A DNA stretch of 64,000 bases from Candidatus Micrarchaeota archaeon. Its GTDB lineage: Archaea > Micrarchaeota > Micrarchaeia > Anstonellales > Bilamarchaeaceae. Each line of letters begins with the position of its first letter. Positions within the stretch are counted from its first letter, which is position 1. The stretch lies in assembly GCA_016212525.1 (NCBI GenBank), contig JACRGD010000010.1, forward strand, positions 527,860-591,859, written 5' to 3'. Below are positions 1,108 through 59,964 of this stretch, in pieces. A program made the translations under genes and the position numbers. The notes beneath the pieces were generated by a model. The model was not told where the DNA came from. It saw only the letters and a list, made by a program, of their open reading frames with translations, and made no database searches.

Positions 1108-1932
1108 TTAGCGAATCCTTATTGGAAGTGCTGCGAGAACATTGAGATCATGCAAGTGTCCTTGCTCAGGCTCGGGCAAAGTAACTTCTTCGCGCGGCTC
1201 TGGAGCAACCCGGGGCGCATTTCTTGTTGCAGACCTGGCTCCCCTTTGATCATCCCGAGTTACAAACAATTGTTCGCGTTCGGTTGATGAATATCTTGGA
1301 GTATTTTGCAAATTGCCTGCGAGTTCATGAAGAAAAACGTTTGCCCGGTTATTCGGAAGGCTACCAGCACGGCGATCCAGAGTTTCGGCGGCAACTTGCG
1401 GATCGATTTGCATGTTTGCACGATACTCGGCCAAGGCATTGGTTATGGTAGAAGGCTCTACCCCCAAACGCCGACATTCGCGGGCTATGAAACTTGCAGT
1501 CTGAGGCTCGAATTGAACCTGACGGATAACTTCTGATGAAACTAATCCCTGCGAAGCACTCGCCAGAGCAGATCTGACCAATCCATCGACATTCGAGTAG
1601 TTTGGAGTCGAAGTCGGGCGCCCGTTGCTACGATGCATATTAGCCATTATGTTCTGTGCAAAAAGCAAACCGTCAGAGGGGAGTTGCGGGGATCGTATTG
1701 TTCCGCTCGAATCACGAGGATAACCAATACCTATTTGCTGCCCGTCATGCGAACTCACTTGTCCATTTTGAATATAATTTGTCATTTCCTTTATATCCCA
1801 GCCCCTAACTGCGCAGATTTGCTCGAGCCGAGTCTGCAGCGCAGGAGGAATTAATCTGGAATTAACCTCGAAAGAGGTGGTCTGAGCCTGAGTTGGGCCG
1901 GGAATCTGAATTTGTCCTGTTGGATCTCCCAT
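1108..1932 (-). CDS. Hypothetical protein, Lys-depleted and Arg-rich (1 Lys in 274 aa)
   Basis: Long ORF with only short opposite-strand ORFs. A TATA-like TATTTAA (complement of 1955-1961) lies about 23 nt upstream of the ATG. No motif recognised. Confidence 0.6.
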   Translation of the reverse strand: MGDPTGQIQIPGPTQAQTTSFEVNSRLIPPALQTRLEQICAVRGWDIKEMTNYIQNGQVSSHDGQQIGIGYPRDSSGTIRSPQLPSDGLLFAQNIMANMHRSNGRPTSTPNYSNVDGLVRSALASASQGLVSSEVIRQVQFEPQTASFIARECRRLGVEPSTITNALAEYRANMQIDPQVAAETLDRRAGSLPNNRANVFLHELAGNLQNTPRYSSTEREQLFVTRDDQRGARSATRNAPRVAPEPREEVTLPEPEQGHLHDLNVLAALPIRIR

Positions 1933-2894: not shown

Positions 2895-3851
2895 ATGTCC
2901 ATACTTCAAAGTTCATTTTTCGGAAAGAGAATCAAGAATCCGGTAATTCTCGCATCGGGAATCATGGGAATGACCAAAGGTTCGCTTGAGCGGGTTTGTG
3001 ATGAGGGAGCAGGTGCAGTAATTGCCAAATCGCTAACACTCGAACCCAGAAAAGGCCATGCCGGACCCAACATCGTCGAGGTTGAAGGGGGCATGCTAAA
3101 TGCCATGGGATATCCAAACCCAGGAATAGAAGAAGGCCTTAAGGAATTTGGGAACTGGAATCGCTTGGATGAAGCACTTATTATTAGTATAGTAGGAAAG
3201 AGCCCAAAAGAATTTGAACAGCTCTCTCAAAAAGTCGAGGAAAGGAAAAAAATACTAGGTGCAAGTGCAATCGAAGCTGTGATCTCGTGTCCCCATACAC
3301 CAGGATTTGGAACGATGGCAGGACAGGGAACCCCGGACTCGATCAGAGAGATCACAACGGCAATAAAAGACAACTGTACACTGCCTCTGATAATCAAACT
3401 CTCACCCTCAATTCCAGGAGAAGGCAAAGCGGCAAAAGCCGCAGAGGATGCAGGCGCAGATGCAGTTAATATGGGCAACTCGCTTGGACCGGGAATGAAG
3501 ATCGACCTAAATCGCAAGGTTCCGGTTCTTGGTTTTGGTGTGGGCGGACTAACCGGCCCGGCAGTCAAACCGATAATTGTCCGATCTGTCTTTGACATAT
3601 ATGACTCAGTAGATATTCCAATCATTGCAACCGGAGGTATCAGTACGGGCGAAGACGCAATAGAAATGATGATGGCCGGAGCAAGCTTTGTGAGCGTCGG
3701 AACCGCAGCCTATTTCAGAGGCCCCCCAGTATTTGGACAGATCGCAAATGAAATGAAAGAGTGGATGAAGAAAAATAAATATTCGAAACCCGGGCAGCTA
3801 ACCGGACTTGCACATGATGAATGGAAGAAATGCAAGAGCGATTTAGTTTGA
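2895..3851 (+). CDS. pyrD: Dihydroorotate dehydrogenase catalytic subunit (class 1B type)
   Basis: NPVILASGIMG, GYPNPG, NMGNSLGPG and IIATGGI motifs are typical of the PyrD TIM barrel. The pyrK partner lies 2 kb downstream. Confidence 0.9.
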   Translation: MSILQSSFFGKRIKNPVILASGIMGMTKGSLERVCDEGAGAVIAKSLTLEPRKGHAGPNIVEVEGGMLNAMGYPNPGIEEGLKEFGNWNRLDEALIISIVGKSPKEFEQLSQKVEERKKILGASAIEAVISCPHTPGFGTMAGQGTPDSIREITTAIKDNCTLPLIIKLSPSIPGEGKAAKAAEDAGADAVNMGNSLGPGMKIDLNRKVPVLGFGVGGLTGPAVKPIIVRSVFDIYDSVDIPIIATGGISTGEDAIEMMMAGASFVSVGTAAYFRGPPVFGQIANEMKEWMKKNKYSKPGQLTGLAHDEWKKCKSDLV

Positions 3852-3858
3852 GCTTCCA

Positions 3859-4212
3859 TTAATCAGAAGAGTTCGGAGTAAGCGCAGAAGAATCCTGCGA
3901 ATGCGCATTGCGCTTATGCTGGGCTCTTGAAAGACTGATAAGAGCATCCGACATATGAACACCATCAAGCAAATTAGCAGCACGTTGAACAGTCTGCGAA
4001 GATGGAGAGATCTCATTAGTTAATCCATTTATCGTATGCCTAAGTGCCCGACCCACGCGGCCCCTTAGATTATGATGAATCGGTGAATCCAATCGATCCA
4101 GAAGCGGATCTGGATTATAATCTTTACGGCCAACCCTTTGTGCAAGAGTAGTTACGAGCTCACGAACAGTATCATTTGAAATAGGCCTAACAACCAGTTT
4201 AGAGTGTTTCAT
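3859..4212 (-). CDS. Hypothetical small protein
   Basis: 117-aa ORF filling the gap between pyrD and the next gene. No motif recognised. Confidence 0.4.
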   Translation of the reverse strand: MKHSKLVVRPISNDTVRELVTTLAQRVGRKDYNPDPLLDRLDSPIHHNLRGRVGRALRHTINGLTNEISPSSQTVQRAANLLDGVHMSDALISLSRAQHKRNAHSQDSSALTPNSSD

Positions 4213-4308
4213 ACAATGGAAAATAGAGGCATGGGTTTTTGTTCTTTTTGTTTACGGACATAATCCATCAAAGCCACATGCATAAATAGAACATAGGAAA
4301 AGGAATAG

Positions 4309-4899
4309 TTGATCAGCGTGAAAGTAAATCTAGAGAGACCAAAGACGCAAAACCCGTGTCAGATATGTACTGCCAAATGCTGCAGAAATTACACAGTTTC
4401 GCTTACTGCCGCGGATTTAGAAAAGCTCTTCCGGACCAAAACAGATGACATCTACAAACACATCGCAGCAATCGACGCCACTGGATTCGATCCAAAATTA
4501 GTTCCCAGAGTCAAACTCACAAAGGAAAATGGTAAAGAAGGCGACTTCATATTGTGCCTGGTGCGAGATCGCAAGGAGACGTGCAGCTTCTTAGGCAAGG
4601 GCAATCTTTGCACAATATATGAAAACCGCCCCAGAAACTGTCGGATCTATCCATTTCGGCTCGATGAAAAAGGAGGGCTAAAATACGTTGAAAAATATAG
4701 GTGCCCGGTTGATTGGAAGCTCAACACAAAAGCAGCGAAATCATTCGAAAAAGACATAACGATCCAAAAGAAAGAAGTACACGAGTACAAAGTGATTTGT
4801 GATGCCTGGAATGGTAAAACAAAGGAACATAGAGAATTGAATGAGTTCATTGAATTTGTACGACAATTCAAACAAAACACAGACGGACATAATAAATAA
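4309..4899 (+). CDS. YkgJ-family (UPF0153) cysteine-cluster protein
   Basis: CQICTAKCC (CxxCxxxCC) near the N-terminus, with further Cys and the YPFRL motif typical of the family. The start is TTG 4309 or GTG 4318. Confidence 0.65.
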   Translation: MISVKVNLERPKTQNPCQICTAKCCRNYTVSLTAADLEKLFRTKTDDIYKHIAAIDATGFDPKLVPRVKLTKENGKEGDFILCLVRDRKETCSFLGKGNLCTIYENRPRNCRIYPFRLDEKGGLKYVEKYRCPVDWKLNTKAAKSFEKDITIQKKEVHEYKVICDAWNGKTKEHRELNEFIEFVRQFKQNTDGHNK

Positions 4900-4931
4900 C
4901 CTTAAATAGACAACAGCGTACAGCATATTCA

Positions 4932-5882
4932 ATGCAAAGAGTTCTGGTAAAAAGAACAAGAGAGCTACTCCCATTTACAACACTATTTGGAGCCATGTTA
5001 GAAACTCAACCAGACATAAAAATTCAGGGAACAATAACCAACGGAAATACACGAGAAGTTCTATTGACAACAAATGGCAGAGTGTTTCCTTTCTTAACTG
5101 AGACTGAAAAAGGTCAGATCCGAATAGACAACCCGGAATTAAGAAATCGAATCGCAGATATGAAAGAAATCGAATCTTATGGACATATTACAATCGTAGA
5201 TGCAGATTCAATGGAAATGAAAAATCTCAAAATCAAAGAAGGCCCAAAAATAGTTCAGCACTGGTCCAATGAAGAGGAAGGGGACATAATCAAAATCCCA
5301 AAAAATGCAGTATTGGCAGCTTATCGGGTACTTGATGGACTATCAGGTAAATTCAATAGGGCAGTAATCAACATTGCAAAACTTGGTGAGCGACCAAAAC
5401 CAGGATCAAGAGAACAAATAGAAGCCCAGATTCGAGAAAAACTGAAAACCGGCAACATAGTAGTCTCGGCCTATGAAGCAGGAGTCAGATATTATGACAT
5501 GATAATAACACTAGACCTCCAGAAGCCCGCAACTCAGGAGGAACTGTCAGAAATACTAAAAGGAAAGCCAAGAATATACGTAGATGTAGATGATATTGCA
5601 CAACACGATTTATCCAGAATATACATAGATGCAGCGAAAAGAGGAATGCCAAGACCTCCAATAATTGCCTGCATGACACGAGAACGAGACAGGTCCACCA
5701 GACAAACGATCAGACTAGTTACCGACCCAATTGTCAATATTGCAGCAGCAAATTTAGATGAAGTGCGAGGAATATTTGGAATTTCACCAGAAGAGAGAGC
5801 ATCAATAACTGATTTGGGAATAGGAATCAGAACAGAAAGGGAAGTTCCAAGAGCAGCAGAATATTTTGAAAGTGCTCGATAA
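4932..5882 (+). CDS. Hypothetical protein (Lys/Glu/Ile-rich, housekeeping-like composition)
   Basis: 316-aa ORF between pyrD and pyrK. No motif recognised. Confidence 0.6.
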   Translation: MQRVLVKRTRELLPFTTLFGAMLETQPDIKIQGTITNGNTREVLLTTNGRVFPFLTETEKGQIRIDNPELRNRIADMKEIESYGHITIVDADSMEMKNLKIKEGPKIVQHWSNEEEGDIIKIPKNAVLAAYRVLDGLSGKFNRAVINIAKLGERPKPGSREQIEAQIREKLKTGNIVVSAYEAGVRYYDMIITLDLQKPATQEELSEILKGKPRIYVDVDDIAQHDLSRIYIDAAKRGMPRPPIIACMTRERDRSTRQTIRLVTDPIVNIAAANLDEVRGIFGISPEERASITDLGIGIRTEREVPRAAEYFESAR

Positions 5883-16984: not shown

Positions 16985-18475
16985 TTAACTACCATATAGT
17001 GAACAATAGCTAGACCCGTAAAGATCCCCATTTGGCACAAAACCACTCATTTTTATTGCCACAGTTGTACTTGTAGATTGATTAATGATTGGAATCTCAA
17101 CTCCTTTTACTATGACTCCAGTACCCCCACAAGTTCGTACATAACTAAATCGCCTACTAAAACAATCGGGATCCAGTATGCTCGAATCCCAAGTCCCAAA
17201 TATTATTCTTACATAATAGGGCGTGTGGAGAGTTGTTGGGAGTGCAAAATATCGATATGACAAATCGGTTTCTGGATCGGACAAGGTGACTGGATCAACA
17301 GATGTTTTTGAACTATCTGGAGCAATTACGGAAAAATCAGCAGTGCAGGTATCGCCCCTAGCTTCCAATACTTCGGATAAAACATTATCTAAACCCAATC
17401 TTGTCTGACTTATGCCTACGCTCACTATGTAGTTGGGGAAATTAACTGTGGACCCTCCGATTGAAACATCACTAGGAGTTAGGTCGTTAATTAGCAATAA
17501 TTTTCTTCCGGTAGATGAACTAAAAGAAGTAACCGCATCGCTTGAAAGGTCAGTTGCTTCCCTTACTGATGAAGGTGCTGGATTACATGCTCCATTATTG
17601 CAACCATAAGTGCATGTTTGCGAGATCATTCGCTTGGCACCGAATCTGCAATAGTATTCTGTGATCGTATTCCCGCTGCAATAATCCACTCGGCTTTCCC
17701 GCGTACCTGAACTACCGTCGTAATAACTAATTGTTCCCTTTACATTATAGTTAGTTCCGCCATCAGTGTCACTACAGGTTTCATTGGTAGAAGAAGCTCC
17801 TGCTAAAAGAGAATTACAAGCGCCTCCTCTAGAAGAACAACCATCAGGGCACGAATATACTTCGACTCCAGTAGTATTATCTGAGTTACAATAATACTCT
17901 ATAACCCGATTAGCAAGGCATGAATCGGTTCTTGTTTCCCAAGTAGTTCCGTTAGAAGAAGTAGTAGTACCATTTACGTAGTATCTTTTTCCGTTGTCCG
18001 AATCATTGCAGGTCCTTATTGGAACTGCCGGATTACAGACTCCCTCAGAACAACCATTAGGGCAGGAATGGAGAGTCACTCCACGAGTGTTGTTAGCGTT
18101 ACAATAAAACTCAGTAACAAAGTTCAGAAGACAAAAATCGGTTTTGATTTCTATGCTTCGATTCTTTAGTACAAAGGTACTTCCTCGTTGCTCATAGTTT
18201 CTGCCGCCATCAGTATCATTACAAGATCCGCTGGTTCCCCTATGAGATCCCAGAAGTCTTCGCGCTTTATCATCAGTTTCATTATACGTCTGAACATCTT
18301 CTAAAAGGTCAACCTTACTCACATTTCCTATTAGCGCTATCTTAATTTCTTCAGCTACGGAAGTAGTAGAGAAAGGAGAGAGATTTTGAGGTTGTAGAAC
18401 CGTTGGCTCTCTATTTTGTATGCAACCGCCAATAAGAAGTCCCCCAAAAAGCAATAGCAAAATTACTAATCTCAT
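16985..18475 (-). CDS. Secreted Cys-rich protein with three tandem ~70-aa repeats
   Basis: The signal peptide ends in LLIGGC. Three repeats follow the pattern C-x-D-[TS]-D-x-G-x-x-Y...D-x-C...E-[YF]-Y-C...C-P-x-G-C...C-N. TTTATAAT at 18498-18505 lies upstream of the start. Confidence 0.7.
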   Translation of the reverse strand: MRLVILLLLFGGLLIGGCIQNREPTVLQPQNLSPFSTTSVAEEIKIALIGNVSKVDLLEDVQTYNETDDKARRLLGSHRGTSGSCNDTDGGRNYEQRGSTFVLKNRSIEIKTDFCLLNFVTEFYCNANNTRGVTLHSCPNGCSEGVCNPAVPIRTCNDSDNGKRYYVNGTTTSSNGTTWETRTDSCLANRVIEYYCNSDNTTGVEVYSCPDGCSSRGGACNSLLAGASSTNETCSDTDGGTNYNVKGTISYYDGSSGTRESRVDYCSGNTITEYYCRFGAKRMISQTCTYGCNNGACNPAPSSVREATDLSSDAVTSFSSSTGRKLLLINDLTPSDVSIGGSTVNFPNYIVSVGISQTRLGLDNVLSEVLEARGDTCTADFSVIAPDSSKTSVDPVTLSDPETDLSYRYFALPTTLHTPYYVRIIFGTWDSSILDPDCFSRRFSYVRTCGGTGVIVKGVEIPIINQSTSTTVAIKMSGFVPNGDLYGSSYCSLYGS

Positions 18476-21160: not shown

Positions 21161-21568
21161 TTACTTATAACTCAAGATTTGTTTAGTAGTTATAACGGAA
21201 ACGGAGTTTTGTTTCATAAAATGAGCATCGTTACTCCAGATGGTCGCATTTTTGGCTAAAGCAGCTGCAATAAATATGACGTCTTTAGGATCAATAGCAG
21301 CAATAATTTCCTTAGATCTGGGCAAAAAGGATTCATAGTCGGATTTGCTTACAATTAGAACATACTTGAAAAGCACCTGTAGAATGACTTTGAATTCTGG
21401 ATCAGTCAAATTCGATTTTTTAAGAATTTCTTTTTTATGATAAAGTAGTTCTTCCAAACCTTTCTCTGGATAATAAAATTCATGTTCAAGAGAAATAATC
21501 TTTGCACGTGTTGTTGAATCTCTGATAAGTGCAGAAATTAAGACGTTGGTGTCAAGAATAACTTTCAT
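21161..21568 (-). CDS. PIN-domain protein (VapC-like toxin)
   Basis: MKVILDTNVLISALI is a typical PIN N-terminus. The start overlaps the upstream small ORF by 4 nt. Confidence 0.75.
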   Translation of the reverse strand: MKVILDTNVLISALIRDSTTRAKIISLEHEFYYPEKGLEELLYHKKEILKKSNLTDPEFKVILQVLFKYVLIVSKSDYESFLPRSKEIIAAIDPKDVIFIAAALAKNATIWSNDAHFMKQNSVSVITTKQILSYK

Positions 21569-21795
21569 AAAAGACCCAGCTTTTTTGCAGTAGCCAGATC
21601 TATCTTTTGAGCCAGAGCAGCAACATCTTCCGAGGTCAATTTGCTCTTAGAAGTTAGTTTTTCCATTAGTTCTAGATCCTTGATCCTCTGTTCAATCATA
21701 TTTCGGAGAGTGGCGCTCCAACTAATTTCATCGTGTTGTTTCATCTTATCATAAGTTTCCTTCGGGAGGGAAAGAGTAACATTTACAGATACCAT
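21565..21795 (-). CDS. Small putative antitoxin partner of the PIN protein
   Basis: 76-aa ORF immediately upstream, translationally coupled to the PIN gene. Confidence 0.55.
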   Translation of the reverse strand: MVSVNVTLSLPKETYDKMKQHDEISWSATLRNMIEQRIKDLELMEKLTSKSKLTSEDVAALAQKIDLATAKKLGLL

Positions 21796-25552: not shown

Positions 25553-25765
25553 AAAGAAAATCAGTACAAACTAGCCATTTGCTACTAGTAAGATGATAGC
25601 AAAGCAATATAAAAGTTATTAGGAGCAGCACGGACTTAAGGAAGCATAAACAGAGATAATTTGACTACTTTTTAGTCACTGTTTTCTAAGCTTAGGAATA
25701 TTTAAATTTAATCATTTTTTTACATAAAAACAAACATTTATATAGTTCCTTTGCTCAATAAACTT

Positions 25766-27916
25766 ATGCCTTCTACTTCAGATTATTATGCCATATTGGG
25801 AGTCCCATCCAACGCGGGCCCGGGCATGATAAAAGAGGCGTATCGGGAAGCAGCTAAGAAAAATCATCCGGATAAGTATGAAAATGCACCTAAAGCAGAG
25901 CAAGATGCTGCTGTAGCTAGACTCACGGAATTAAATGTAGCATACGAAGTCCTTGGAGATGTAGATAAACGAGCAGAATATGATGGTTTTATCGAGGATC
26001 CAACGAACCCTTATCCTTATCGGCATTATCGAAATCCAGCGAGCCTTTTATACGTACAACGAGACATCGATCAAGCACAGGGGAATTTAGAACAATTAAG
26101 AGATATCGCATTTAGTCCATCCGAACAGGCAGTAAGAAATCTAGCAGTTGTTCCGTTACTCGAAACAGAGGATCTTAACCTTTTATCAAGGATTGCAAAG
26201 GGAGACTTTGAACCGAAAATATGTGCAGCTGCACAATCAAAGGTCGCAAGTGCAGCAACAAAGGCCGCAAGTGCAAAAACAGCGGATTTGCTAGATAAGG
26301 GAAACTATGTAGAAGCGATCCGACTTGCAACAAGTGCAAAGGAACTTCCCGAAATACGAAGAGTCGCCACTAAAGTGGCAATAGTAATCTTTAGTCGTTT
26401 AGCTGTGCAGGATAAAATTTCGGACGAGATGGTCAAGGAGTATCTCCATCATTTGGTTTTAGGTGATCTTAGGCATGCTCAACGTGATGAAGAGCACACG
26501 CAAAGCATTGTCCCCATTGAAACCCGAGTATCTATTGGGAATCGGATTATTGATTATTATAAGGGAAAAGGAGAAGCAAAAGTACTTCTAAAGTTAGAGG
26601 AAGAAAAGAGCGCCTACTTGCCACGAGCACTTCTAGGTAAATTTGCCCAAGCCGCAGTTGGGATTTATGTAGAGGCTGGAAAAAGAAATGAATTACTAGA
26701 ACTCTTAGAACGTTCATGGGCACTAAGAGGTTCGGTCGACTTGGTTATAAATGGAATCATAACGATTGCTCAAAAAACCACTCCAGGACAAACAAATGAT
26801 TTTGTTGGTACTACAAGAGCCGCAATCGATAGACTCGAATATTCTTCGGGTGAAAGCAGTTACGCAATCGAAAAGCTAGTTATCGGACTAATCGACAAGT
26901 CAGTAGAAAGTGGAAGCCGAGCAGTTGTCGATATGCTAAATCACCGGATTAACCCGCCACAGTCTCGCATGTTCAGTATAGGCTCACGTTTTGATGAACC
27001 ACGAAAAAGATTACCATACGATATTCAAGATAAAGTTGAGTCTGCCCTTAGAATATTTAGGGAAAAAGAAGAAGCTGAAAGGGCAAGAATAGCTGCAGAA
27101 GCACTGGCGGCTAAGCAGAAGGCAGCTGCAGAAGCAAGATTAGCTGAAGCAGAAAGAATACGACAAGCCGCAGCAGCATGCACTCCGGCTGAGCTCGATG
27201 CTCTTTTAACTAAACTAAGAGAAGCGAGAGAGCATGACCCGAATAGGAAGAGATTAGGCAGGGAAGTACTCGGAATCTGCAAAGCCCAGGAAAATATATT
27301 AAAGCTTGAAGAAATAGCCCTAACAACGGACAGATCTGGTTATCTTGTATATCCATACGACATAGCAGGAGAAGCCCAGGCCGAATTAGTCAGGATAGGA
27401 AAGGAGATCAAAAGTCTGCCATTACTTATGAAGCTTGCAAAACATGACAAATGCCAAGAGTCAGAAGCCGCTGGCGAAGCTGCAATTGCCATCTGTATTG
27501 ATACAAACGACTTGCCAAATCTTAAAGAAATGGCTCTAACAACAGACAGATCAGGTTATTGTGTATATAAATACAAAGTCGCAGATCATGCCCAGGCAGC
27601 CCTAGTTAAGATTGGGAAGGATACCAGGATTCTTCCATTACTAATGGAGCTTGCAGAAAACTACACTCACCATGATGATCGTCAAAGGGATGCAAGCGCC
27701 GCAGCGATAGAACTGTGCGTCGAGACAATGGACATGACAAACCTTGAAAAAATGACCGAACGTAAGGGAGGTTATGCCAGGTATCCATATGCCGAACGAA
27801 GAGCTGAGGCTGAATTAAAGAGGCTAAGAACGGAAACGGGTGCAGTTGCGACTAAAATGGCTGCTGGATTAAAACAACCAGCTCAGCCAGGAGCCGCTAA
27901 GCGAGTGAGTGGTTAA
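25766..27916 (+). CDS. J-domain (DnaJ-like) protein with a long helical repeat region
   Basis: DYYAILGVPSNAGPGMIKEAYREAAKKNHPDKY contains the HPD motif. An Ala/Glu/Lys coiled segment and three tandem ~72-aa units follow. ATG 25766 lies 22 nt downstream of TTTATATA (25737-25744). The ORF track starts at TTG 25751. Confidence 0.85.
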   Translation: MPSTSDYYAILGVPSNAGPGMIKEAYREAAKKNHPDKYENAPKAEQDAAVARLTELNVAYEVLGDVDKRAEYDGFIEDPTNPYPYRHYRNPASLLYVQRDIDQAQGNLEQLRDIAFSPSEQAVRNLAVVPLLETEDLNLLSRIAKGDFEPKICAAAQSKVASAATKAASAKTADLLDKGNYVEAIRLATSAKELPEIRRVATKVAIVIFSRLAVQDKISDEMVKEYLHHLVLGDLRHAQRDEEHTQSIVPIETRVSIGNRIIDYYKGKGEAKVLLKLEEEKSAYLPRALLGKFAQAAVGIYVEAGKRNELLELLERSWALRGSVDLVINGIITIAQKTTPGQTNDFVGTTRAAIDRLEYSSGESSYAIEKLVIGLIDKSVESGSRAVVDMLNHRINPPQSRMFSIGSRFDEPRKRLPYDIQDKVESALRIFREKEEAERARIAAEALAAKQKAAAEARLAEAERIRQAAAACTPAELDALLTKLREAREHDPNRKRLGREVLGICKAQENILKLEEIALTTDRSGYLVYPYDIAGEAQAELVRIGKEIKSLPLLMKLAKHDKCQESEAAGEAAIAICIDTNDLPNLKEMALTTDRSGYCVYKYKVADHAQAALVKIGKDTRILPLLMELAENYTHHDDRQRDASAAAIELCVETMDMTNLEKMTERKGGYARYPYAERRAEAELKRLRTETGAVATKMAAGLKQPAQPGAAKRVSG

Positions 27917-28941: not shown

Positions 28942-29199
28942 TTACACTGGCTTAAGCAAACCAGAAGATTGTTGCTGAATGAACCCGGCAGCACCGGCAA
29001 TAGCCCCAACAATTACTCCGCCAACAACCATGCTAATGGCAGCTACTTGCCATTTTCCCCGAACTTCTGCAGGCTGGGTATTTGAAAGACCATACATGAT
29101 TCCTCCAAGAAGAATAAGAATCAGGGATATGACTGGAGCGATACCACCTAAAAAAGACTGGATATTAGTAGCTAAAATTTCAGCGCCGATTGCCATCAA
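28942..29199 (-). CDS. Small two-TM helical-hairpin membrane protein
   Basis: 85 aa with two hydrophobic helices (APVISLILILLGGIMYGL and VAAISMVVGGVIVGAIAGAAGF) separated by a short polar loop. Confidence 0.55.
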   Translation of the reverse strand: MMAIGAEILATNIQSFLGGIAPVISLILILLGGIMYGLSNTQPAEVRGKWQVAAISMVVGGVIVGAIAGAAGFIQQQSSGLLKPV

Positions 29200-29281: not shown

Positions 29282-29911
29282 ATGAGACATCTTATTTCTG
29301 ACAGAGTAGGCACAAAAATACACAAATTAACAGCCCTAGTGTGTGTAATAGAAACAGTTGCAGCACTCGCATGTACAAGTAGAGCAGCAGTTAGAAGACA
29401 GACAATCAGAGCAGAACCGATCTTAGAAGAATGCCAGATACGAGGGAATAGAATATATAAGAGTGGAGAATTCGGAGAAACTGCCATAATTCCAGAAACG
29501 CTCAGACCAATAGACCAGCGCTGTAGCGGGAATCGGGCTTTTATACTAACGGCAAATATGCTTTATACACTACCTTTTGAACATCCATTACAAACACGCG
29601 CGCAGCTATTGGAAGAGCCAACAACGATGAGCGATATAGATGACATACGAAAGCGAGGGATAGTTTCATGGACGGCTACATCAAGAGGAGCATGTTTCAT
29701 AACCCGCGATTCGCAGCTATTTACGATATCGATAACCGGGGGGAGAAATCGTCAGTTCAATCTCCGCGCAGATTTAAGTGCTGCTAATATTCGTAGCTGT
29801 ATGGATCAAGCACTGTGTATAGACAATGCCGCAGACAGAGGAACACAAGGAAGAATAGTTTTGGGATTTAGAAACGATCAAGTCCAGAGCTACACTTTTT
29901 ATCCTCAATAG
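29282..29911 (+). CDS. Hypothetical protein, Arg-rich (weak call)
   Basis: 209-aa ORF convergent with the 694-aa gene. No motif recognised and the start is uncertain. Confidence 0.4.
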   Translation: MRHLISDRVGTKIHKLTALVCVIETVAALACTSRAAVRRQTIRAEPILEECQIRGNRIYKSGEFGETAIIPETLRPIDQRCSGNRAFILTANMLYTLPFEHPLQTRAQLLEEPTTMSDIDDIRKRGIVSWTATSRGACFITRDSQLFTISITGGRNRQFNLRADLSAANIRSCMDQALCIDNAADRGTQGRIVLGFRNDQVQSYTFYPQ

Positions 29912-29946: not shown

Positions 29947-32031
29947 TTAGCTTCCGGGCCGGGTAAGAACCTGCTCGGACCAAAGAAGATCTCCACCTTC
30001 ATTTCTTCGAATCGCAATCATTGGAGAGGGAGCCGGAGGAAGCGAGAGCCTAAGAGTTCGCAGGAACGAAACTGAATCTGGGGCAGCCATCGAACGCTCT
30101 GAGCGTCGAACCATGATTCCGTTTTGAGCAAGAGTCTGATCCGGAGGTAGTGTCGAATTTGTAACCCGATCCAAAAGGGCAAGGAGCTGTTGGTAGCTAT
30201 TGATCGGAGTATAGGTTACCATTTGGTAGGGAGTTCCACCAAAGAAAAACGAATATGCATAAACAGTTTGGCTGGGTCGAACCTGGACAACTTCAGTAAT
30301 CGGAACTTGGGAAGTAGACGTTTCGATCCTATTGAAATCGATCGCAATAAGAGGATAATTGTTGGCATCAGTCTGATAAAGACCCCGCCGGATCTGGGCT
30401 GCCAGTATTCCAAGGCCGATATCATTAACCATCCGGCCATCTTCGGCAATTGCTATATATGTTCGTGGGATTAGTGCATTTTCGGATTCTGCTCGTGCCT
30501 CAGCAGCTTCGCGCATGGTCATAGGTCGCCGGGTAGGTGCACGCGGAACACGATTTGTAGAAAGATCATCAAGAGCAGCACTGAGCTGGTTAACGTTAGA
30601 AAGAACATCATAAGATGCAATGGTGTATTGATGACCATTGAACTGGAAGGTGATCATATTCAGACGTCTTGAAGCCCGCTCTGTATCAGCGTCAGCAGGA
30701 ACGTATCCTTGACGTAACCGGGCCAGTTCCGCATCCCATTCATCAGTAGTAGGACTGCGAACGATAGGACCAGTAACAGACGACATGGTAAGTGGAACAT
30801 TTCTTACAATGGTAAGAGTCTGGGGGGGCATTTGATTTGCCAAAGAGGCAGATCGATCTGGAGTAAGCGGCTCACGATTCCATAGCAGCGAAGTCGCAAC
30901 AGAATTAACCAGAGATCCTACGCCCTGAGCGGCGTAATCGATCAAAAACCGCTGTGCGAAGAATCTGAGCTGCTCACGAGTCATAATATTACCATCAGGC
31001 CCCCGAACACCAAAAGAAACATGCTCTTCAGGTTGCTCTGCAGAAGACATCAGAGAAAGGAGCTCATTAATCTGATTAATTGGACGAGAATAGCCAATCT
31101 GATAAGTTTGATCCCGGTATTGGAACGAATAAACATATGCAATCGAATTTCTTCCCAAAGTCAGTGCAGATGCCCACTGATCAAAGGAATCCCGCATGGA
31201 TGCAGTATAATGAGCATCCCGAACAGAAGCTGCAGTAAGAAGTAAATATTCACCTGCGGCAGAATGAACCAGAGGATCGGTTGTCGATCCGGTTCCGGAT
31301 GGACTAATACTTGACGCGGCGCTAGTCATAACAGTATCTACCCTTCTATTGAGTTGGGCCGGAGGAGCATGTTGTCTTTGAAGCTCGGCACGAACCAGAG
31401 ATTCAACACCCACTGCGACTTCATGGGCAAACGCAGGCTCGAAATTACGCTCTCTCACAAGCGCCTGCTCATATGCAGCAAGGCCGGAAACAGTACGAAC
31501 CGGAACACGGGCAATTGAGGATTGACCACCTAAATTAGATAGAACATAATCACGAAGTGACGATGAAACCACACCAAGACGACTCTCCATTGAAACATGT
31601 GAGTCACGTGCATCAGTAACAAATCCTGCCAAAACATCCCTGGGAATACCATGAGGAAAATGAGTTGGGTAAATGTGCTGGTAGTATGATGCCTCTACTC
31701 TAAGAAGTGCGCCTCGCTGCTCTGAAGTACCCCCATCTTGAAAATTGATCATACCAGCAGCACCGAAAAAGCTAGAAACGGTAAATGTTCGAACTTCATC
31801 CCTGGTGGCATTTGGGTGATCACGCTCAAAACCATAAACTGCCCTTAGAGTTTCTTGCCTAAGGGCACCCTCATTACGAATGGGTTCAGACGAATGTTGA
31901 CGAATAAATCGAAGTATGCCATCGATCTCAGTATGAGCCAATTGTTCGATTCGAGTCGTTGATGGAGGACGTTCTCTCATAGCACCGGAAAGTTGAAATA
32001 AAAACATGGGTATCCCAGAAAAATCGCGCAC
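29947..32031 (-). CDS. Large hypothetical protein with no Lys and no Cys and three internal repeats
   Basis: The 694-aa ORF has only short antisense ORFs. The likely true start is ATG 32007, because TTTATAA (complement of 32039-32045) lies only 8 nt from GTG 32031 but 32 nt from ATG 32007. Confidence 0.7.
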   Translation of the reverse strand: MRDFSGIPMFLFQLSGAMRERPPSTTRIEQLAHTEIDGILRFIRQHSSEPIRNEGALRQETLRAVYGFERDHPNATRDEVRTFTVSSFFGAAGMINFQDGGTSEQRGALLRVEASYYQHIYPTHFPHGIPRDVLAGFVTDARDSHVSMESRLGVVSSSLRDYVLSNLGGQSSIARVPVRTVSGLAAYEQALVRERNFEPAFAHEVAVGVESLVRAELQRQHAPPAQLNRRVDTVMTSAASSISPSGTGSTTDPLVHSAAGEYLLLTAASVRDAHYTASMRDSFDQWASALTLGRNSIAYVYSFQYRDQTYQIGYSRPINQINELLSLMSSAEQPEEHVSFGVRGPDGNIMTREQLRFFAQRFLIDYAAQGVGSLVNSVATSLLWNREPLTPDRSASLANQMPPQTLTIVRNVPLTMSSVTGPIVRSPTTDEWDAELARLRQGYVPADADTERASRRLNMITFQFNGHQYTIASYDVLSNVNQLSAALDDLSTNRVPRAPTRRPMTMREAAEARAESENALIPRTYIAIAEDGRMVNDIGLGILAAQIRRGLYQTDANNYPLIAIDFNRIETSTSQVPITEVVQVRPSQTVYAYSFFFGGTPYQMVTYTPINSYQQLLALLDRVTNSTLPPDQTLAQNGIMVRRSERSMAAPDSVSFLRTLRLSLPPAPSPMIAIRRNEGGDLLWSEQVLTRPGS

Positions 32032-32135
32032 CTAAGAATTATAAAGATTGAGCTTCACACAAGATCAAAAAATAACAGTAGAAAACGAGTAAAAAATCGG
32101 ATAACATTTTAATTCATTCGATTTACAAATGTAAT

Positions 32136-33188
32136 ATGCTTGACAAAGAAAGGATAGATGAAATTTTAGCTTCATACAAAAATAAATTCAAAATAGCCAC
32201 TATTTGTTCTCATTCTTCATTGCAGATCTTCAAAGGAGCAAGAGAAGAGGGAATAGAAACAATAGGAATAGTCCAGAGAGGAAAAAGAAAACTCTACGAA
32301 TCTTTTCCATATGGACGACCGGACACATTCATCGAAGTCGAGGATTATAGAGACTTTCCAACAGAAGAATTAGTAAAAGAAAAAGCAATCGTAATACCGC
32401 ATGGTTCGTTTGTCGAATATGTAGGCGAAAAATTCGATGATCTGGAAGTCCCGGTTTATGGAAACCGCAAATCGATAGTCTGGGAAAGAAGCAGGGAAAA
32501 GATGTTTGAGTGGCTAAATAAAGCCCAGATCAAAACTCCGAAAGTTTACAAACCCCAAGAGATCGATGGGCCGGTTATGGTCAAGTTCCCAGGCGCAAAA
32601 GGCGGAAGAGGCTACTTGATAGTTCGCTCATATGAAGAATTCCAAAAAAGAGTAAGCGATGAAGAGAAGAAAAATTGTATGATACAGGAATTCTTAGTCG
32701 GAGTACGTGCTTATCCTCATTATTTCTTTACGCCATTTGGAAAAATCGGATATCCGACCAAAAACGGCAAGATCGAACTTTTAGGTGTAGACCGACGAGT
32801 CGAGAGCAGTGCAGATGAAATTGCACGCGCAGTCTCGGCAGGAATGTCACCAAACATGTCATTTACAGTTATCGGAAACGAACCACTGGTGCTCCGAGAA
32901 TCACTCCTTTCAGAATACATGGAAATCGGAAGACGAATAAGCGACACTTCATTCGAACTATTTGGCGGATTATTTGGACCTTATTGCATTGAAACGATAA
33001 TTACCGAAGACCTTCAGATATATGCATTTGAAATTAGCGCAAGGATTGTCGCCGGAACAAACGTCTACCCGGAAGGATCTCCTTATTCGACATATTTCTA
33101 TGACCAGCCAATGAGCGCAGGCAGAAGAATAGCAAGAGAACTAAAAATGGCAGCAAAATTAAAGAGACTCAAGGAGTTAGTATACTAA
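32136..33188 (+). CDS. purP: 5-formaminoimidazole-4-carboxamide ribonucleotide (FAICAR) synthetase, archaeal ATP-grasp type
   Basis: The N-terminal IATICSHSSLQIFKGAREEG, ATP-grasp-like features and overall length are typical of PurP. Confidence 0.85.
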   Translation: MLDKERIDEILASYKNKFKIATICSHSSLQIFKGAREEGIETIGIVQRGKRKLYESFPYGRPDTFIEVEDYRDFPTEELVKEKAIVIPHGSFVEYVGEKFDDLEVPVYGNRKSIVWERSREKMFEWLNKAQIKTPKVYKPQEIDGPVMVKFPGAKGGRGYLIVRSYEEFQKRVSDEEKKNCMIQEFLVGVRAYPHYFFTPFGKIGYPTKNGKIELLGVDRRVESSADEIARAVSAGMSPNMSFTVIGNEPLVLRESLLSEYMEIGRRISDTSFELFGGLFGPYCIETIITEDLQIYAFEISARIVAGTNVYPEGSPYSTYFYDQPMSAGRRIARELKMAAKLKRLKELVY

Positions 33189-40314: not shown

Positions 40315-41664
40315 CTATTTCGAGGGCAACTCGATCGTATAATTCATAACATCCCCCGATGAGGAAACATTAGTTAGTCTAAATGCCTCACTGCCATCAG
40401 ACCAGTTGAGAACCAGGGGCTGACCCAAGAAATAGAGATCATCATTTGACCAAAGCCCCTTTGAATCATCAAACGGGTAGTAGCCCGGCCGATACATCCA
40501 AAGACCCAGCCTGCCCCAATCAGTCTTGGCAATAGTTGCCCAATTAGAATCCAAAACAAGATCGGGCTTTGAAACAAAATCATAACTTCTAGGTCCCTCG
40601 ATCGCTCGCCAGATTCCAAGACCAGAATCTGGAATAGATGCATCATAAGCACCGCGCTGACGATTCTCAATAATATAGAATTCGTAACCAGCAGGAATCG
40701 GATGCTTTAGCACGGCCACAGTGTGTGAGTAATCGACTCGTGAGATTTGGTAACAACCGCTCGAATCAATCACCTTAAGGTCCAACCAACCAGCACGCAT
40801 CTTCTGATATGGGTCAAGATGCGGGGCACTCCAGGGCTGGTCCATTATCGAATAGGCTCCAGCCGCATATGGGAAGAAATAGGTGAAATAGAGATCCTGT
40901 GTCCCCAGGTATAGATGCAGAAGTTCATGAGACGGAGTTCCTACATTGAGGGGGTTTCCTGAGCCGGAAGAAGACAGCCAGGTCAAATCCACTCCATCAA
41001 GATGCATCGGAACAGAACCGCCAAACTCGCGACCATAGGAGGGACGGGTTGCACCGCCGGGCCCGGGAGTATTGTGCGGAAGAACGATAAATATTCCCAG
41101 CTCCTGGGGCGTCAAAATACCATCATAATTAGTATCATAGCGCGAGAAATCAAAATCCGGATCTGCTTTCTTTAGCATCTCGCTATAGAAGCGTTGCTCG
41201 CCACTAATGATACCATCGCCATCAGAATCATTTGGATCGTTGTAATCCCAGTAGTATTGCCAATCATGATCCAATGGATATTTGAGAATTGTCGCCTCGT
41301 GGAGCCGCCCTTTTGTGTTTGAAATATTATAGAAGTAATCAGCAATGCTATTCGTCTCACCAAAGAACCAGTTCCTGGTTTGGGAGATTGACGGAGCAGG
41401 GTCCGAAGTGCTCAGTCGATCAGCGATTATGACCAAAAGCGGACTGTCAAAGGATTTGGGAGTTGGAATATTGTAGGTAAGATCAGAATTGGGAAATCCA
41501 CAGGAATTTGAAGGAGAGGAAGGCTTCCCAATAGCATAGTTATTTGGTGGAATGGAAATATTGACATCTGGCGAAATCGGCTTGCCAAAATTAGGAATTG
41601 TACAACCAAATAAGATAAGCAGGACAAAAATTACAGGAAGAATAGAAAAAGAAGAAAATCGCAT
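40315..41664 (-). CDS. Secreted or lipoprotein-like HExxH metalloprotease (M6-like)
   Basis: The signal peptide ends in LILFGC. HELLHLYLGTQDLY resembles the M6 HExxHxxGxPDLY motif. DSDGDGIISGEQ and YDTNYDGILTPQE are Ca-binding-like loops. Confidence 0.6.
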   Translation of the reverse strand: MRFSSFSILPVIFVLLILFGCTIPNFGKPISPDVNISIPPNNYAIGKPSSPSNSCGFPNSDLTYNIPTPKSFDSPLLVIIADRLSTSDPAPSISQTRNWFFGETNSIADYFYNISNTKGRLHEATILKYPLDHDWQYYWDYNDPNDSDGDGIISGEQRFYSEMLKKADPDFDFSRYDTNYDGILTPQELGIFIVLPHNTPGPGGATRPSYGREFGGSVPMHLDGVDLTWLSSSGSGNPLNVGTPSHELLHLYLGTQDLYFTYFFPYAAGAYSIMDQPWSAPHLDPYQKMRAGWLDLKVIDSSGCYQISRVDYSHTVAVLKHPIPAGYEFYIIENRQRGAYDASIPDSGLGIWRAIEGPRSYDFVSKPDLVLDSNWATIAKTDWGRLGLWMYRPGYYPFDDSKGLWSNDDLYFLGQPLVLNWSDGSEAFRLTNVSSSGDVMNYTIELPSK

Positions 41665-58518: not shown

Positions 58519-58998
58519 TTAGCGATGTCTTGGAGTCCGGGTTGGATGTGCCCGCGCGAGAGCAGCAGCTTCATGAGGAACAAGAAAATCATTCATTTGC
58601 TGCCAGATTGCCGCATAGATTTTATCTGCATGGGTTGGTGAGGTATGGTCTTGTGCAAAAGTTTCGTTTACCCGATTAGCAGTATCGGGGAATCTAAAGC
58701 GATCCAAAAGGCCCATAAAAACAGATGAATCAATAACCTGACCACTCGGCATACGAAGAGTATGCGTATGATAGTCTACACCATAAGAAAGGCGCTCTAG
58801 ACGCCTCGTGACCTCGGTTTGTGCCTGAGTTGGAGTGGGAAATGCATGAGTTCGGATTAATTCATCCCGGTAATCCAAAAACACCTGTGCCACTTCAGCT
58901 CGAAAGCGACGAAGATCGGCAACAGTGGGTGGTTGATAAACAGGTTCTTCGCGTCTTGATGGGGCCGGAGTCCGATATTGGAAAATCAACATAAACAA
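58519..58998 (-). CDS. Hypothetical protein, Lys-depleted (1 K in 159 aa)
   Basis: ORF with a TTG start at 58998. An ATG at 58992 is more likely. Confidence 0.5.
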   Translation of the reverse strand: MFMLIFQYRTPAPSRREEPVYQPPTVADLRRFRAEVAQVFLDYRDELIRTHAFPTPTQAQTEVTRRLERLSYGVDYHTHTLRMPSGQVIDSSVFMGLLDRFRFPDTANRVNETFAQDHTSPTHADKIYAAIWQQMNDFLVPHEAAALARAHPTRTPRHR

Positions 58999-59022: not shown

Positions 59023-59964
59023 TTATCTAAGAGGAGTCTGGACGAAAACACCCGCATAATAAGAGGGCAAATGAGTCCATCCACCAGTTTCCCAAAGCAC
59101 AGGATAACCCTCATTTTCGAGAAATAATTTCCAGTTCCTCTGGGGATCAGTAGAATCATAGCATCCTTCATAGCCACGATGATAAAAAGCCAAAAATTGA
59201 GCAGAAATAGGATATTTGCCATTAGTTAGGAGTTCGTTAAGATCAGTAAGAAAGGAAACGGCCTGAGTTGGTGAGAGACCCTGGATTCGCCAATCGTGAA
59301 GAGTTTCGTGTATGACATTTCTGCGTACAATATCAGGATCAGAAACACGAGAATTGAAGAAGAAAAAATTTGGGCCATCAGAATTGCAAACTTCGCCAAC
59401 ACCAGCGCCAGGATCAAGAGATCGTAAAAAACAGCCAATAACACCAGAACTCCTAAGAGACTGATCAGGATTGGAAGAATGATAAACAAGAAAATAATTA
59501 TCGGTAAATGCAGGCGCAAGAGTTTGGAGATTTAGTTCTGATAGTGTCGGTGCAATAAATCGATCAAAATAGACACGAAGCCGCAAGCGCTCCGAAGGGG
59601 GAATTGCGGATGGAGAATCGAAATTGGGAGAGCTCGAATTTGCAGCAGCGTAGAAAGCCGGATTGAAACCAAATTCAGTTTGTTCGTATCGATATTGTCC
59701 ACTGGAAATAGCAAGATGGAATGCAGGAATCCAGCGATAGGCCGGATCGAACCTAGGTGTAGGCGAAACGCGAGAAACAGGAACAATATTACGAGTGTGC
59801 TCAATAGATAGATGCACCGGATTGCCTGAAAGGGAAAGTGCAACAGCACAAAGAGCGAGTCTCTTCAATTTACCACAAAAGTAGATTAATTGAAACTCTT
59901 TAAAAGACCATGGGTCAAAATAGTTAATACCATGAAACCAAAAATTCTTCAAAGAGCCAAGCAC
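59023..59964 (-). CDS. Secreted HExxH-motif protein, Lys-poor
   Basis: VIHETLHDW contains HExxH. The probable start is TTG 59868, giving M-KRLALCAVALSLSG as a signal peptide and removing the overlap with the divergent ORF. Confidence 0.55.
   Translation of the reverse strand: MLGSLKNFWFHGINYFDPWSFKEFQLIYFCGKLKRLALCAVALSLSGNPVHLSIEHTRNIVPVSRVSPTPRFDPAYRWIPAFHLAISSGQYRYEQTEFGFNPAFYAAANSSSPNFDSPSAIPPSERLRLRVYFDRFIAPTLSELNLQTLAPAFTDNYFLVYHSSNPDQSLRSSGVIGCFLRSLDPGAGVGEVCNSDGPNFFFFNSRVSDPDIVRRNVIHETLHDWRIQGLSPTQAVSFLTDLNELLTNGKYPISAQFLAFYHRGYEGCYDSTDPQRNWKLFLENEGYPVLWETGGWTHLPSYYAGVFVQTPLR

Follow-up and report, generated by a model that had tools for sequence, protein, structure and literature searches.

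Selection against lysine in a purP-adjacent protein cassette of Micrarchaeota

The closest described precedents for a protein stripped of lysine are the AB toxins and the lysine deserts. In the catalytic chains of cholera CtxA1, ricin RtxA, pertussis S1, Shiga StxA1 and CdtB, 15-24 arginines stand against 0-2 lysines (PMC4030972). A lysine desert is defined as a lysine-free stretch that is 150 or more residues long or makes up 50% or more of the chain (PMC10665810), and such deserts are enriched in organisms that possess lysine-directed proteasomal tagging (PMC10665810, PMC10169902). The present study concerns a gene on the reverse strand (29947..32007) of a 64,000-nucleotide stretch of a Candidatus Micrarchaeota genome (contig JACRGD010000010.1; the whole stretch is here called the window, and coordinates given without a locus name refer to it), whose product, the target protein, contains neither lysine nor cysteine. 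We show that selection acts against lysine in this protein and that, in some lineages, it does so across the mature proteins of an entire gene cassette, to which the target gene belongs, through extensive sequence turnover.

As in the toxin chains, lysine is replaced by arginine to an extreme extent in the target protein, and this is conserved among homologues; the toxins act at or in another cell. The target protein, by contrast, lacks any domain of a toxin or enzyme and resembles them in neither sequence nor fold. It is archaeal, whereas the AB toxins are from bacteria or plants, and the cell on which it would presumably act is prokaryotic and has no ubiquitin system of the classical kind. 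The cassette departs further from the AB toxins in that the purge takes in several genes, including that of a lipoprotein, in that it is on or off between sister lineages, and in that the proteins are 3-10 times longer. With the lysine deserts, as found in ubiquitin-proteasome components and in the proteomes of pupylating Actinobacteria and of their phages, the common ground is a long conserved lysine-free stretch, which there is read as protection from lysine-directed conjugation; in the target protein the stretch is the whole chain, 686 or 694 residues depending on the start codon, and it is conserved in the orthologues. Deserts are usually regions, often disordered ones, within proteins of the cytoplasm, in organisms whose tagging system is known, whereas in the cassette whole folded multi-domain proteins and the predicted exported domain of a lipoprotein are lysine-free, in an organism for which no tagging system is known. 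In Actinobacteria the deserts belong to high-GC genomes; the micrarchaeal avoidance reaches down to 38% GC. The principle of lysine avoidance is already known, and what is new are the protein families, the setting in an archaeal symbiont, the extent over a whole cassette with an exported lipoprotein included, and the on/off state in sister lineages; we found no report of lysine-free proteins in DPANN archaea in the literature.

The lysine-free gene and its orthologues

The open reading frame (ORF) 29947..32031 (reverse strand), counted by the ORF finder as 694 codons from GTG 32031, was confirmed. Its NCBI annotation is HY990_06985, a hypothetical protein encoded on a 666-kb contig of Candidatus Micrarchaeota archaeon with the start put at Met 31980, which fits the small host-associated archaeon that an earlier interpretation of the DNA from its letters (the sequence-only reading) had proposed as owner. 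Counts over the 694 codons bore out the composition reported there, namely no lysine, no cysteine, and richness in arginine (65), serine (66), alanine (66), threonine (49) and glutamine (38). The DNA as such does not account for the absence of lysine, since the lysine codons AAA and AAG (AAR) number 0 in frame but 20 and 18 in the two alternative frames of that strand; usage of the remaining codons that begin with AA is normal (AAT 24, AAC 4). Nor is the gene the product of a recent AAR-to-AGR conversion, since 48 of its 65 arginine codons are CGN. Its codon usage is rich in T at third positions, unlike that of the housekeeping neighbours. The probability of zero lysine in 686 codons is 5e-9 from the off-frame AAR rate, 2e-22 from the 7% lysine of a lysine-rich homologue, and 8e-30 from codon usage in the housekeeping neighbours. 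Zero cysteine (probability ~6e-5) is less striking because the whole family is cysteine-poor.

The true start is most likely ATG 32007, giving a protein of 686 residues that ends at the stop codon 29947-29949. The sequence-only reading had favoured this start on account of a TATA box, and the choice is strengthened by the orthologues, whose N-termini MFIFQIAG and MFVFQIAG align with MFLFQLSG of the target protein. The TATA-box-like heptamer TTTATAA (32039..32045, reverse strand), a putative promoter element, lies 32 nucleotides upstream of the ATG, and an identical heptamer is found 22 nucleotides upstream of the orthologue ATG in contig L001; GTG 32031 is a mere 8 nucleotides away from the heptamer of the window. 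The protein has an isoelectric point of 6.3. Neither a transmembrane segment nor a signal peptide was found, as had been noted, in the Kyte-Doolittle profile (highest 19-residue mean 1.05) or at the N-terminus (MFLFQLSGAMRERPP).

Relatives of the target protein in sequence collections are few. When 1.84 billion representative proteins were searched exhaustively with phmmer, only two further clusters were returned, P0003 (749 residues) and P0002 (a fragment of 469 residues), which are orthologues from two lineages known from metagenomes. A word-indexed protein search with the target sequence or the alignment A1 gave the target itself as sole match, scans of genome, metagenome and viral contigs with A1 revealed no relatives, and a tblastn search of phages and plasmids gave no match to the target, hence no evidence of an origin from a mobile element. 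The contigs that carry the 749-residue form (L001-L003) share the layout of the window, the gene being divergent from purP with the UPP synthase gene beyond. Between the window and the orthologue locus, PurP is 76% and UPP synthase 72% identical, the target protein only ~28%. The ratio of non-synonymous to synonymous substitution (dN/dS) is 0.15-0.20 among the closer orthologues of the target, compared to 0.011 for the adjacent purP. Because of this ratio and the conserved position beside purP, the target is taken to be established as a real, functional gene under purifying selection, vertically inherited at a fixed chromosomal site, its non-synonymous evolution being more than 10 times faster than that of purP.

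At ~28% identity, the orthologues still hold one lysine each (1 in 749 and 1 in 469 residues), at non-homologous positions. The exchange with lysine is the commonest that arginine undergoes in ordinary proteins, as is evident from substitution matrices. At mismatched arginine positions of the target family, Arg-to-Lys exchange accounts for just 1 of 65 and 1 of 19 pairs, and arginine is swapped for alanine, glutamine, serine, threonine and others. The near-zero lysine of both orthologues is contrary to drift, which the sequence-only reading had proposed to recognize from a normal lysine content in them, and the claim of that reading, that lysine avoidance in the target is under selection, is upheld.

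A purP-adjacent cassette of module proteins and a lipoprotein

The divergent neighbour of the target gene is purP (32136..33188, forward strand), encoding 5-formaminoimidazole-4-carboxamide ribonucleotide synthetase (Pfam DUF1246 and DUF1297). Because sequence searches had stalled, PurP was adopted as positional anchor, and 51 loci of Micrarchaeota in the GTDB species set were compared; the survey covered ±6 kb around purP in the related genomes and the 64 kb of this genome. In 14 of the 51 loci (GC 38-62%), two or three tandem ORFs of ~200-290 residues, divergent from purP, encode almost lysine-free, arginine-rich proteins. They represent two related families, X and Y (BLAST; hhalign probability 97.7), each protein consisting of an N-terminus MAQxQRxPE, a helical part (with GYTxxQA in Y) and one module. 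The motifs of the module, YxYxhxhxGxxYxV, helix, IIAI..P.G, helix, IAIS.VRR, are as in the repeats of the target protein. In 28 X and Y proteins (6168 residues), 35 lysines (0.57%) stand against 783 arginines (12.7%), with 176 and 215 AAR triplets in the off-frames.

Comparison by hhalign of the target modules with the X and Y modules gave E-values of 7.6e-5 (probability 62) and 4.9e-4, and the module profiles of X and Y ranked the target family top, in register with its hairpins. When a hidden Markov model (HMM) of nine target modules was run against 1111 locus ORFs, cassette members were the top 5 and 13 of the best 16, against a background of 36 in 1111 (P 2e-18). Full-length profiles of X and Y did not match the target at default filters, and the relationship emerged only with profiles restricted to the module, with hhalign and with rank statistics. 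On the other side of the target gene lies the partner gene Z (29282..29911, forward strand), convergent to it and matched by the Z profile with E 2.4e-11; its 209-residue product is predicted by inspection to be a lipoprotein with the cysteine at residue 31. The Z family (~250 residues; n-region, h-region and cysteine as judged by inspection) consists of predicted lipoproteins and is convergent to the module genes in every related locus.

Module homology, position at purP and the Z match together identify the window gene as the fused three-module form in a conserved cassette made up of purP, module gene(s) and Z: a module is present, the gene is divergent beside purP, and a convergent Z follows immediately downstream. 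The cassette and the target have in common the module pattern YxYxhxhxGxxYxh, helix, strand IAI..G, helix, strand IxIRR, the avoidance of lysine, the position divergent from purP and the convergent Z. They differ in that the target combines three modules and a longer helical N-terminus in one 686-residue chain, whereas its relatives are 2-3 separate one-module genes of ~200-290 residues; the N-terminus is MFLFQLSG in the one and MAQxQRxPE in the others, and direct sequence similarity is marginal. No relatives of X, Y or Z were found in Pfam, NCBIfam or the PDB, the last also in a search of PDB sequences with a profile of the Z alignment A4. The cassette is duplicated in locus L012, with two Z and two module-type genes (1568-2356, 2972-4027, 4219-5007, 5087-5665), and expanded in L006 (2185-5938), with three module genes and two Z, one lysine-poor and the other with 9 lysines in the mature part.

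The sequence-only reading had described the target protein as built on three copies of a ~35-residue repeat. The repeats are real, with Smith-Waterman z-scores of ~7.5 against shuffles for the pairs R1-R3 and R2-R3, R1 and R2 being linked only transitively. They are, however, only the heads, comprising β-hairpin and helix, of modules about three times as long (~100 residues) with the order β-β-α-β-α-β, and the protein as a whole consists instead of an N-terminal helical region and three such modules. The N-terminal region (31180..32007, reverse strand; ORF residues 9-284), which starts with the conserved MFLFQLSG, is predicted to be mostly α-helical from the secondary structure in a single-sequence AlphaFold2 model. 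Module 1 (30802..31179, reverse strand; ORF residues ~285-410) contains the repeat IAYVYSFQYRDQTYQIGYSRPINQINELLSLM. Module 2 (30337..30699, reverse strand; ~445-565) contains LNMITFQFNGHQYTIASYDVLSNVNQLSAALDDL and has a 26-residue insert behind its first helix. Module 3 (29950..30309, reverse strand; ~575-694), with TVYAYSFFFGGTPYQMVTYTPINSYQQLLALLDRV, was chosen for separate modelling.

Structure prediction of the repeat module, which had been proposed as a check, yielded an AlphaFold2 model of module 3 (mf8dd706eff61) with a mean per-residue confidence (pLDDT) of 77, about 90 in the core, and a predicted template modelling score of 0.68, but no match in fold: Foldseek gave best E-values of 0.57 in the PDB and 0.078 in BFVD, with template modelling scores of at most 0.35. 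The full-length single-sequence model (pLDDT 36) is good for secondary structure only, residues ~30-120 reaching 70-84. Scans of the target and its neighbours with Pfam, NCBIfam, PHROGs and PADLOC gave no usable family for the target, and a profile search of alignment A1 against PDB sequences gave no match. Across these family scans, the PDB sequence search and Foldseek, no catalytic or toxin domain was found in the target. A match to JetA (E 0.0013) was set aside, as no stretch of it scored above threshold, and profile matches to TAL effectors in the PDB (E 0.004-0.03) were recognized as an artefact of summing over repeats (8-12 matches to 34-residue repeats at -2.6 to +2.7 bits each, none significant alone). 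Within the 64-kb window, no paralogue of the target was detected at E below 1e-3.

Lysine content across lineages and its possible causes

Module homologues rich in lysine (7-11%) are present at loci L012, L014, L016 and L023, recognized by the Y profile with E-values from 1e-9 to 6e-23; that of L023 (4638-5834) adjoins purP and has two modules. The Z proteins of L012 and L023, in which the signal peptide was recognized, have 18-25 lysines in 223 mature residues, and those of L014 and L016 have 20-23 over the whole protein, compared to 1-4 in ~230 mature residues for most of the lysine-free lineages. PurP, by contrast, has a steady lysine content of 6.4-9.2% in complete copies. Lysine content in mature Z co-varies with that in the module proteins, strongly but not absolutely, and because PurP lysine stays constant while cassette lysine varies, the purge is one at the level of the system and not a genome-wide shift. 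In a PurP tree (single-gene neighbour-joining, without support values), the lysine-free and lysine-rich states are interleaved. Arginine makes up 9-13% of the lysine-free forms against 4-6% of the lysine-rich homologues, the lysines of which align most often with arginine (18-22%) and otherwise with threonine, serine, alanine and glutamine.

The lysines that remain are unevenly placed. The n-region of the Z signal peptide, which faces the cytoplasm, keeps 2-6 of them; the Z of the window has 4, of which 2 are ahead of Cys31 and 2 in the 179-residue mature part. In the module proteins, 12 of 36 residual lysines fall within the first 15 residues (expected share 6.6%, P 1.9e-6), mostly at position ~7 of MAQxQ[RK]KPP. 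The N-terminus MAQxQ[RK][RK]PP is conserved (L006, L010, L011, L042, L050, L055 and others), and the lysine at ~7 is often the only one of the protein; the protein L011:5199-5990 has 4 lysines at its extreme C-terminus. The termini of these module proteins seem to be exempt from lysine avoidance. The placement recurs in two unrelated genes of the orthologue contig described below, those of a 1649-residue protein and of a small lipoprotein, and the N-terminal lysine codons of all these genes serve as internal controls: such codons are translated well in the mRNAs concerned, and the avoidance concerns lysine in the mature chain. By conjecture, the lysine-tolerant first 15 residues of the module proteins may be a leader.

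As a tentative explanation, to which we assign a probability of roughly 45%, extracytoplasmic exposure would make lysines harmful in the mature cassette proteins. The cassette comprises one to three module proteins, having a helical N-terminal part and one to three domains of ~100 residues, together with the predicted membrane-anchored lipoprotein Z. In a subset of lineages, that of the window included, its mature proteins have been purged of lysine, with arginine and small polar residues taking its place. They would be exposed beyond the cytoplasmic membrane, probably where the archaeon meets its host, and free ε-amino groups would be a liability there; the hazard could be a lysine-specific protease, or else the partner organism, or secreted enzymes of the archaeon itself, might tag or cross-link lysines covalently. 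The explanation is suggested by Z, whose purged domain lies outside the membrane while the cytoplasm-facing leader keeps its lysines, a distribution that fits an extracytoplasmic hazard better than tagging within the archaeon's own cytoplasm. For an obligate episymbiont, the extracytoplasmic environment is the cell surface or the zone of host contact. We infer that the module proteins are extracytoplasmic, that the hazard is proteolysis or tagging, and that the host is involved.

Several points weigh against extracytoplasmic exposure as the cause. The module proteins have no export signal or transmembrane segment (no Sec, Tat or lipobox signal is recognizable in the target or in the X and Y proteins), and their export, the weakest link of the argument, is assumed. 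Homology of the target modules to those of X and Y is weak per score (HMM E 0.04-1) and is backed by rank enrichment and synteny. The clade of L019, L024 and L054 has lysine-free module proteins yet 8-11 lysines in mature Z. Neither the window nor the loci yielded a lysine-specific protease, a ubiquitin-like system or a transglutaminase. Arginine being abundant, trypsin-like cleavage would still be possible, and only a strictly lysine-directed agent fits.

Among the alternatives, the absence of any selection, be it through drift, compositional bias, recent transfer from a lysine-poor (high-GC or halophilic) donor, or because the ORF is not a gene, is contradicted by the data and close to negligible. 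T-rich third positions unlike those of the housekeeping neighbours, and three clusters as the yield of direct sequence search among 1.84 billion representatives, might speak for it, but the off-frame AAR numbers are normal (18-20 per frame), the dN/dS of 0.15-0.20 indicates constraint, the position is conserved across many species, and phage, plasmid and viral collections hold no matches. The import from a lysine-poor lineage, which the sequence-only reading had allowed for, is countered by the conserved purP-side position, a GC content of 40-47%, the 48 CGN codons among 65 for arginine, and avoidance throughout genomes of 38-62% GC whose PurP has a constant 6-9% lysine. It is highly improbable, and in conflict with the data, that lysine is spared in proteins made when its supply from the host is scarce. 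DPANN archaea are generally amino-acid auxotrophs and biosynthetic enzymes are known to avoid their cognate amino acid, both of which would favour sparing; yet the 2-6 lysine codons among the first ~35 of Z and the one at codon ~7 of many module genes would then stall translation, and arginine, equally host-derived and costlier in nitrogen, is enriched. That arginine is required, as opposed to lysine forbidden, by an anionic ligand (nucleic acid, phospholipid head groups, acidic glycans) or by conditions favouring guanidinium would agree with the higher arginine share of the lysine-free forms and with arginine as the commonest replacement. We regard it as very unlikely, given that a preference for arginine at interfaces fails to explain the near-total exclusion of lysine over about 6000 residues, variable surface positions included, that most former lysine positions are now threonine, serine, alanine or glutamine, and that homologues with 7-11% lysine evidently work.

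The remaining alternatives retain lysine itself as the liability and place it elsewhere. If the cassette or an allied enzyme modified or cross-linked lysines of a target, for example in the host envelope, its own parts might be lysine-free against auto-modification, just as E3 ligase components use lysine deserts against auto-ubiquitylation (PMC10665810). Confinement of the purge to cassette proteins, with neighbours spared, is in line with such self-protection, which is nonetheless very doubtful: searches of the module proteins and of Z revealed no enzyme domain of any kind, and unrelated lysine-avoiding proteins in the same genomes suggest a shared environment, not the neighbourhood of one enzyme. 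Proteins that stay in the cytoplasm of the Micrarchaeon and avoid its own ubiquitin-like tagging or acylation, in the manner of ubiquitin- and pupylation-system components, would agree with the lack of signal peptides and transmembrane segments in the module proteins and with long conserved lysine-free stretches, the defining mark of lysine deserts (PMC10665810, PMC10169902). We consider this improbable, since cytoplasmic neighbours carry 6-14% lysine, no ubiquitin-like, E1-like or JAMM gene was found among the scanned window ORFs, and the distribution of lysine in Z fits an intracellular hazard poorly. Delivery into the cytoplasm of a host archaeon, with lysine removed to escape SAMP/Urm1-type conjugation and proteasomal degradation by the logic that AB-toxin A chains follow in eukaryotic cells, had been considered in the sequence-only reading and is likewise unlikely. 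The bias of 64-65 arginines to 0 lysines matches toxin catalytic chains (PMC4030972), evolution as fast as this (28% identity against 76% for PurP) typifies proteins that interact with a host, Micrarchaeota depend on hosts (PMC5498576), and lysine is tolerated in N-terminal leader-like segments only. On the other hand, no catalytic or toxin domain was found and no delivery apparatus is tied to the cassette, the TrbC/VirB2-like neighbour described below being under the Pfam cut-off and not seen at the orthologue locus.

Extracytoplasmic exposure, as the explanation we prefer, may be set in a wider context of lysine-directed attack and evasion involving DPANN symbionts and their partners, possible in our view but with the odds clearly against it. 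Partners or competitors would tag, cross-link or cleave the surface or delivered proteins of the symbiont at lysine, and a lysine-free "interface sub-proteome" would be the answer. This sub-proteome would take in the cassette as well as the unrelated lysine-avoiding proteins of the window and of L001 and L002; sister lineages without such pressure would keep their lysine, and the cassette would represent a novel family of folds through which contact with the host is made.

Other lysine-poor genes and the significance of lysine avoidance

The ORFs of the window can be sorted into housekeeping genes with Pfam domains, 6-14% lysine and a GC content at third positions of about 40-45%, and about a dozen Pfam-less orphans with 0-3% lysine, higher arginine, T-rich third positions and a third-position GC content of about 28-35%. 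Besides the target, marked avoidance of lysine is seen in a 274-residue orphan beside ftsZ (1108-1932, reverse strand; 1 lysine against 15 and 13 off-frame AAR, 9.5% arginine), for which no Pfam or NCBIfam family was found. The 159-residue product of 58519-58998 (reverse strand) has 1 lysine (8 and 3 off-frame), 11.9% arginine and the N-terminus MLIFQY; the resemblance of the latter had suggested a homologue of the target, which is unsupported (E 0.48). Adjacent to it, 59023-59964 (reverse strand) encodes a lysine-poor protein of 313 residues in which an HExxH-like motif, HETLH, was noticed by eye. Lysine-poor ORFs of the window other than the target gave no matches when searched against the 51 loci. 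At L001:15446-20395 (forward strand), and also at L002:6671-11620, an orphan of 1649 residues has 190 arginines and 6 lysines, 4 of these in a Sec-like signal peptide, with 141 and 174 off-frame AAR; L002:11803-13475 (forward strand) encodes a protein of at least 557 residues with 1 lysine (43 and 51 off-frame). Neither of the two orphans has a Pfam or NCBIfam match or detectable similarity to the target, and a word-indexed protein search with the 1649-residue protein of L001 gave no match. A small lipoprotein beside the orthologue has all 3 of its lysines within the first 8 residues.

About 80 nucleotides beyond the start of Z, on the strand of the target, 28942-29199 (reverse strand) encodes 85 residues with two hydrophobic stretches. 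The match to TrbC/VirB2 (E 0.0078) scores 16.8 bits against a cut-off of 27.9, that to a type IV secretion system pilin has E 0.054; no VirB4/VirD4-type domain that would indicate such a system was found nearby, and no counterpart of the gene was seen in the gene table of the orthologue locus. The 721-residue product of 25751-27916 (forward strand) carries a DnaJ (J) domain at its N-terminus (E 3.7e-17), the rest being without family; in its C-terminal half, two to three repeats of ~60 residues (…ALTTDRSGY.VY.Y….AQAaLV.IGK…LPLLM.LA) were made out by eye. Two further predicted lipoproteins lack a Pfam family. One of 449 residues (40315-41664, reverse strand; MRFSS…LILFGC) shows, on visual inspection, an HELLH motif; it may be a zinc protease that is secreted, perhaps relevant to the hypothesis of a protease as the hazard. 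The other (16985-18475, reverse strand) has 496 residues, is rich in cysteine (4.6%) and contains about four CxDTDGG…Y…C repeats. Overlapping ORFs of 135 and 76 residues at 21161-21795 (reverse strand) resemble, by sequence only, a PIN-domain toxin (MKVILDTNVLISA…) and its antitoxin.

To our knowledge, almost nothing is known of the molecules by which DPANN archaea interact with their hosts, and most candidates are anonymous orphan genes. Near-zero lysine, high arginine in the mature chain and lysine restricted to leaders provide a computable signature by which the cassette and other orphans can be recognized as a functional class. The occurrence of lysine-free and lysine-rich versions of the same proteins in sister lineages constitutes a natural experiment. 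Regardless of the mechanism, three uncharacterized protein families are added, together with a module model that matches nothing in the PDB or BFVD. If lysine-directed tagging or proteolysis by the partner cell were indeed the cause, the logic by which toxins and phages evade ubiquitin-like systems would extend to archaeal symbioses.

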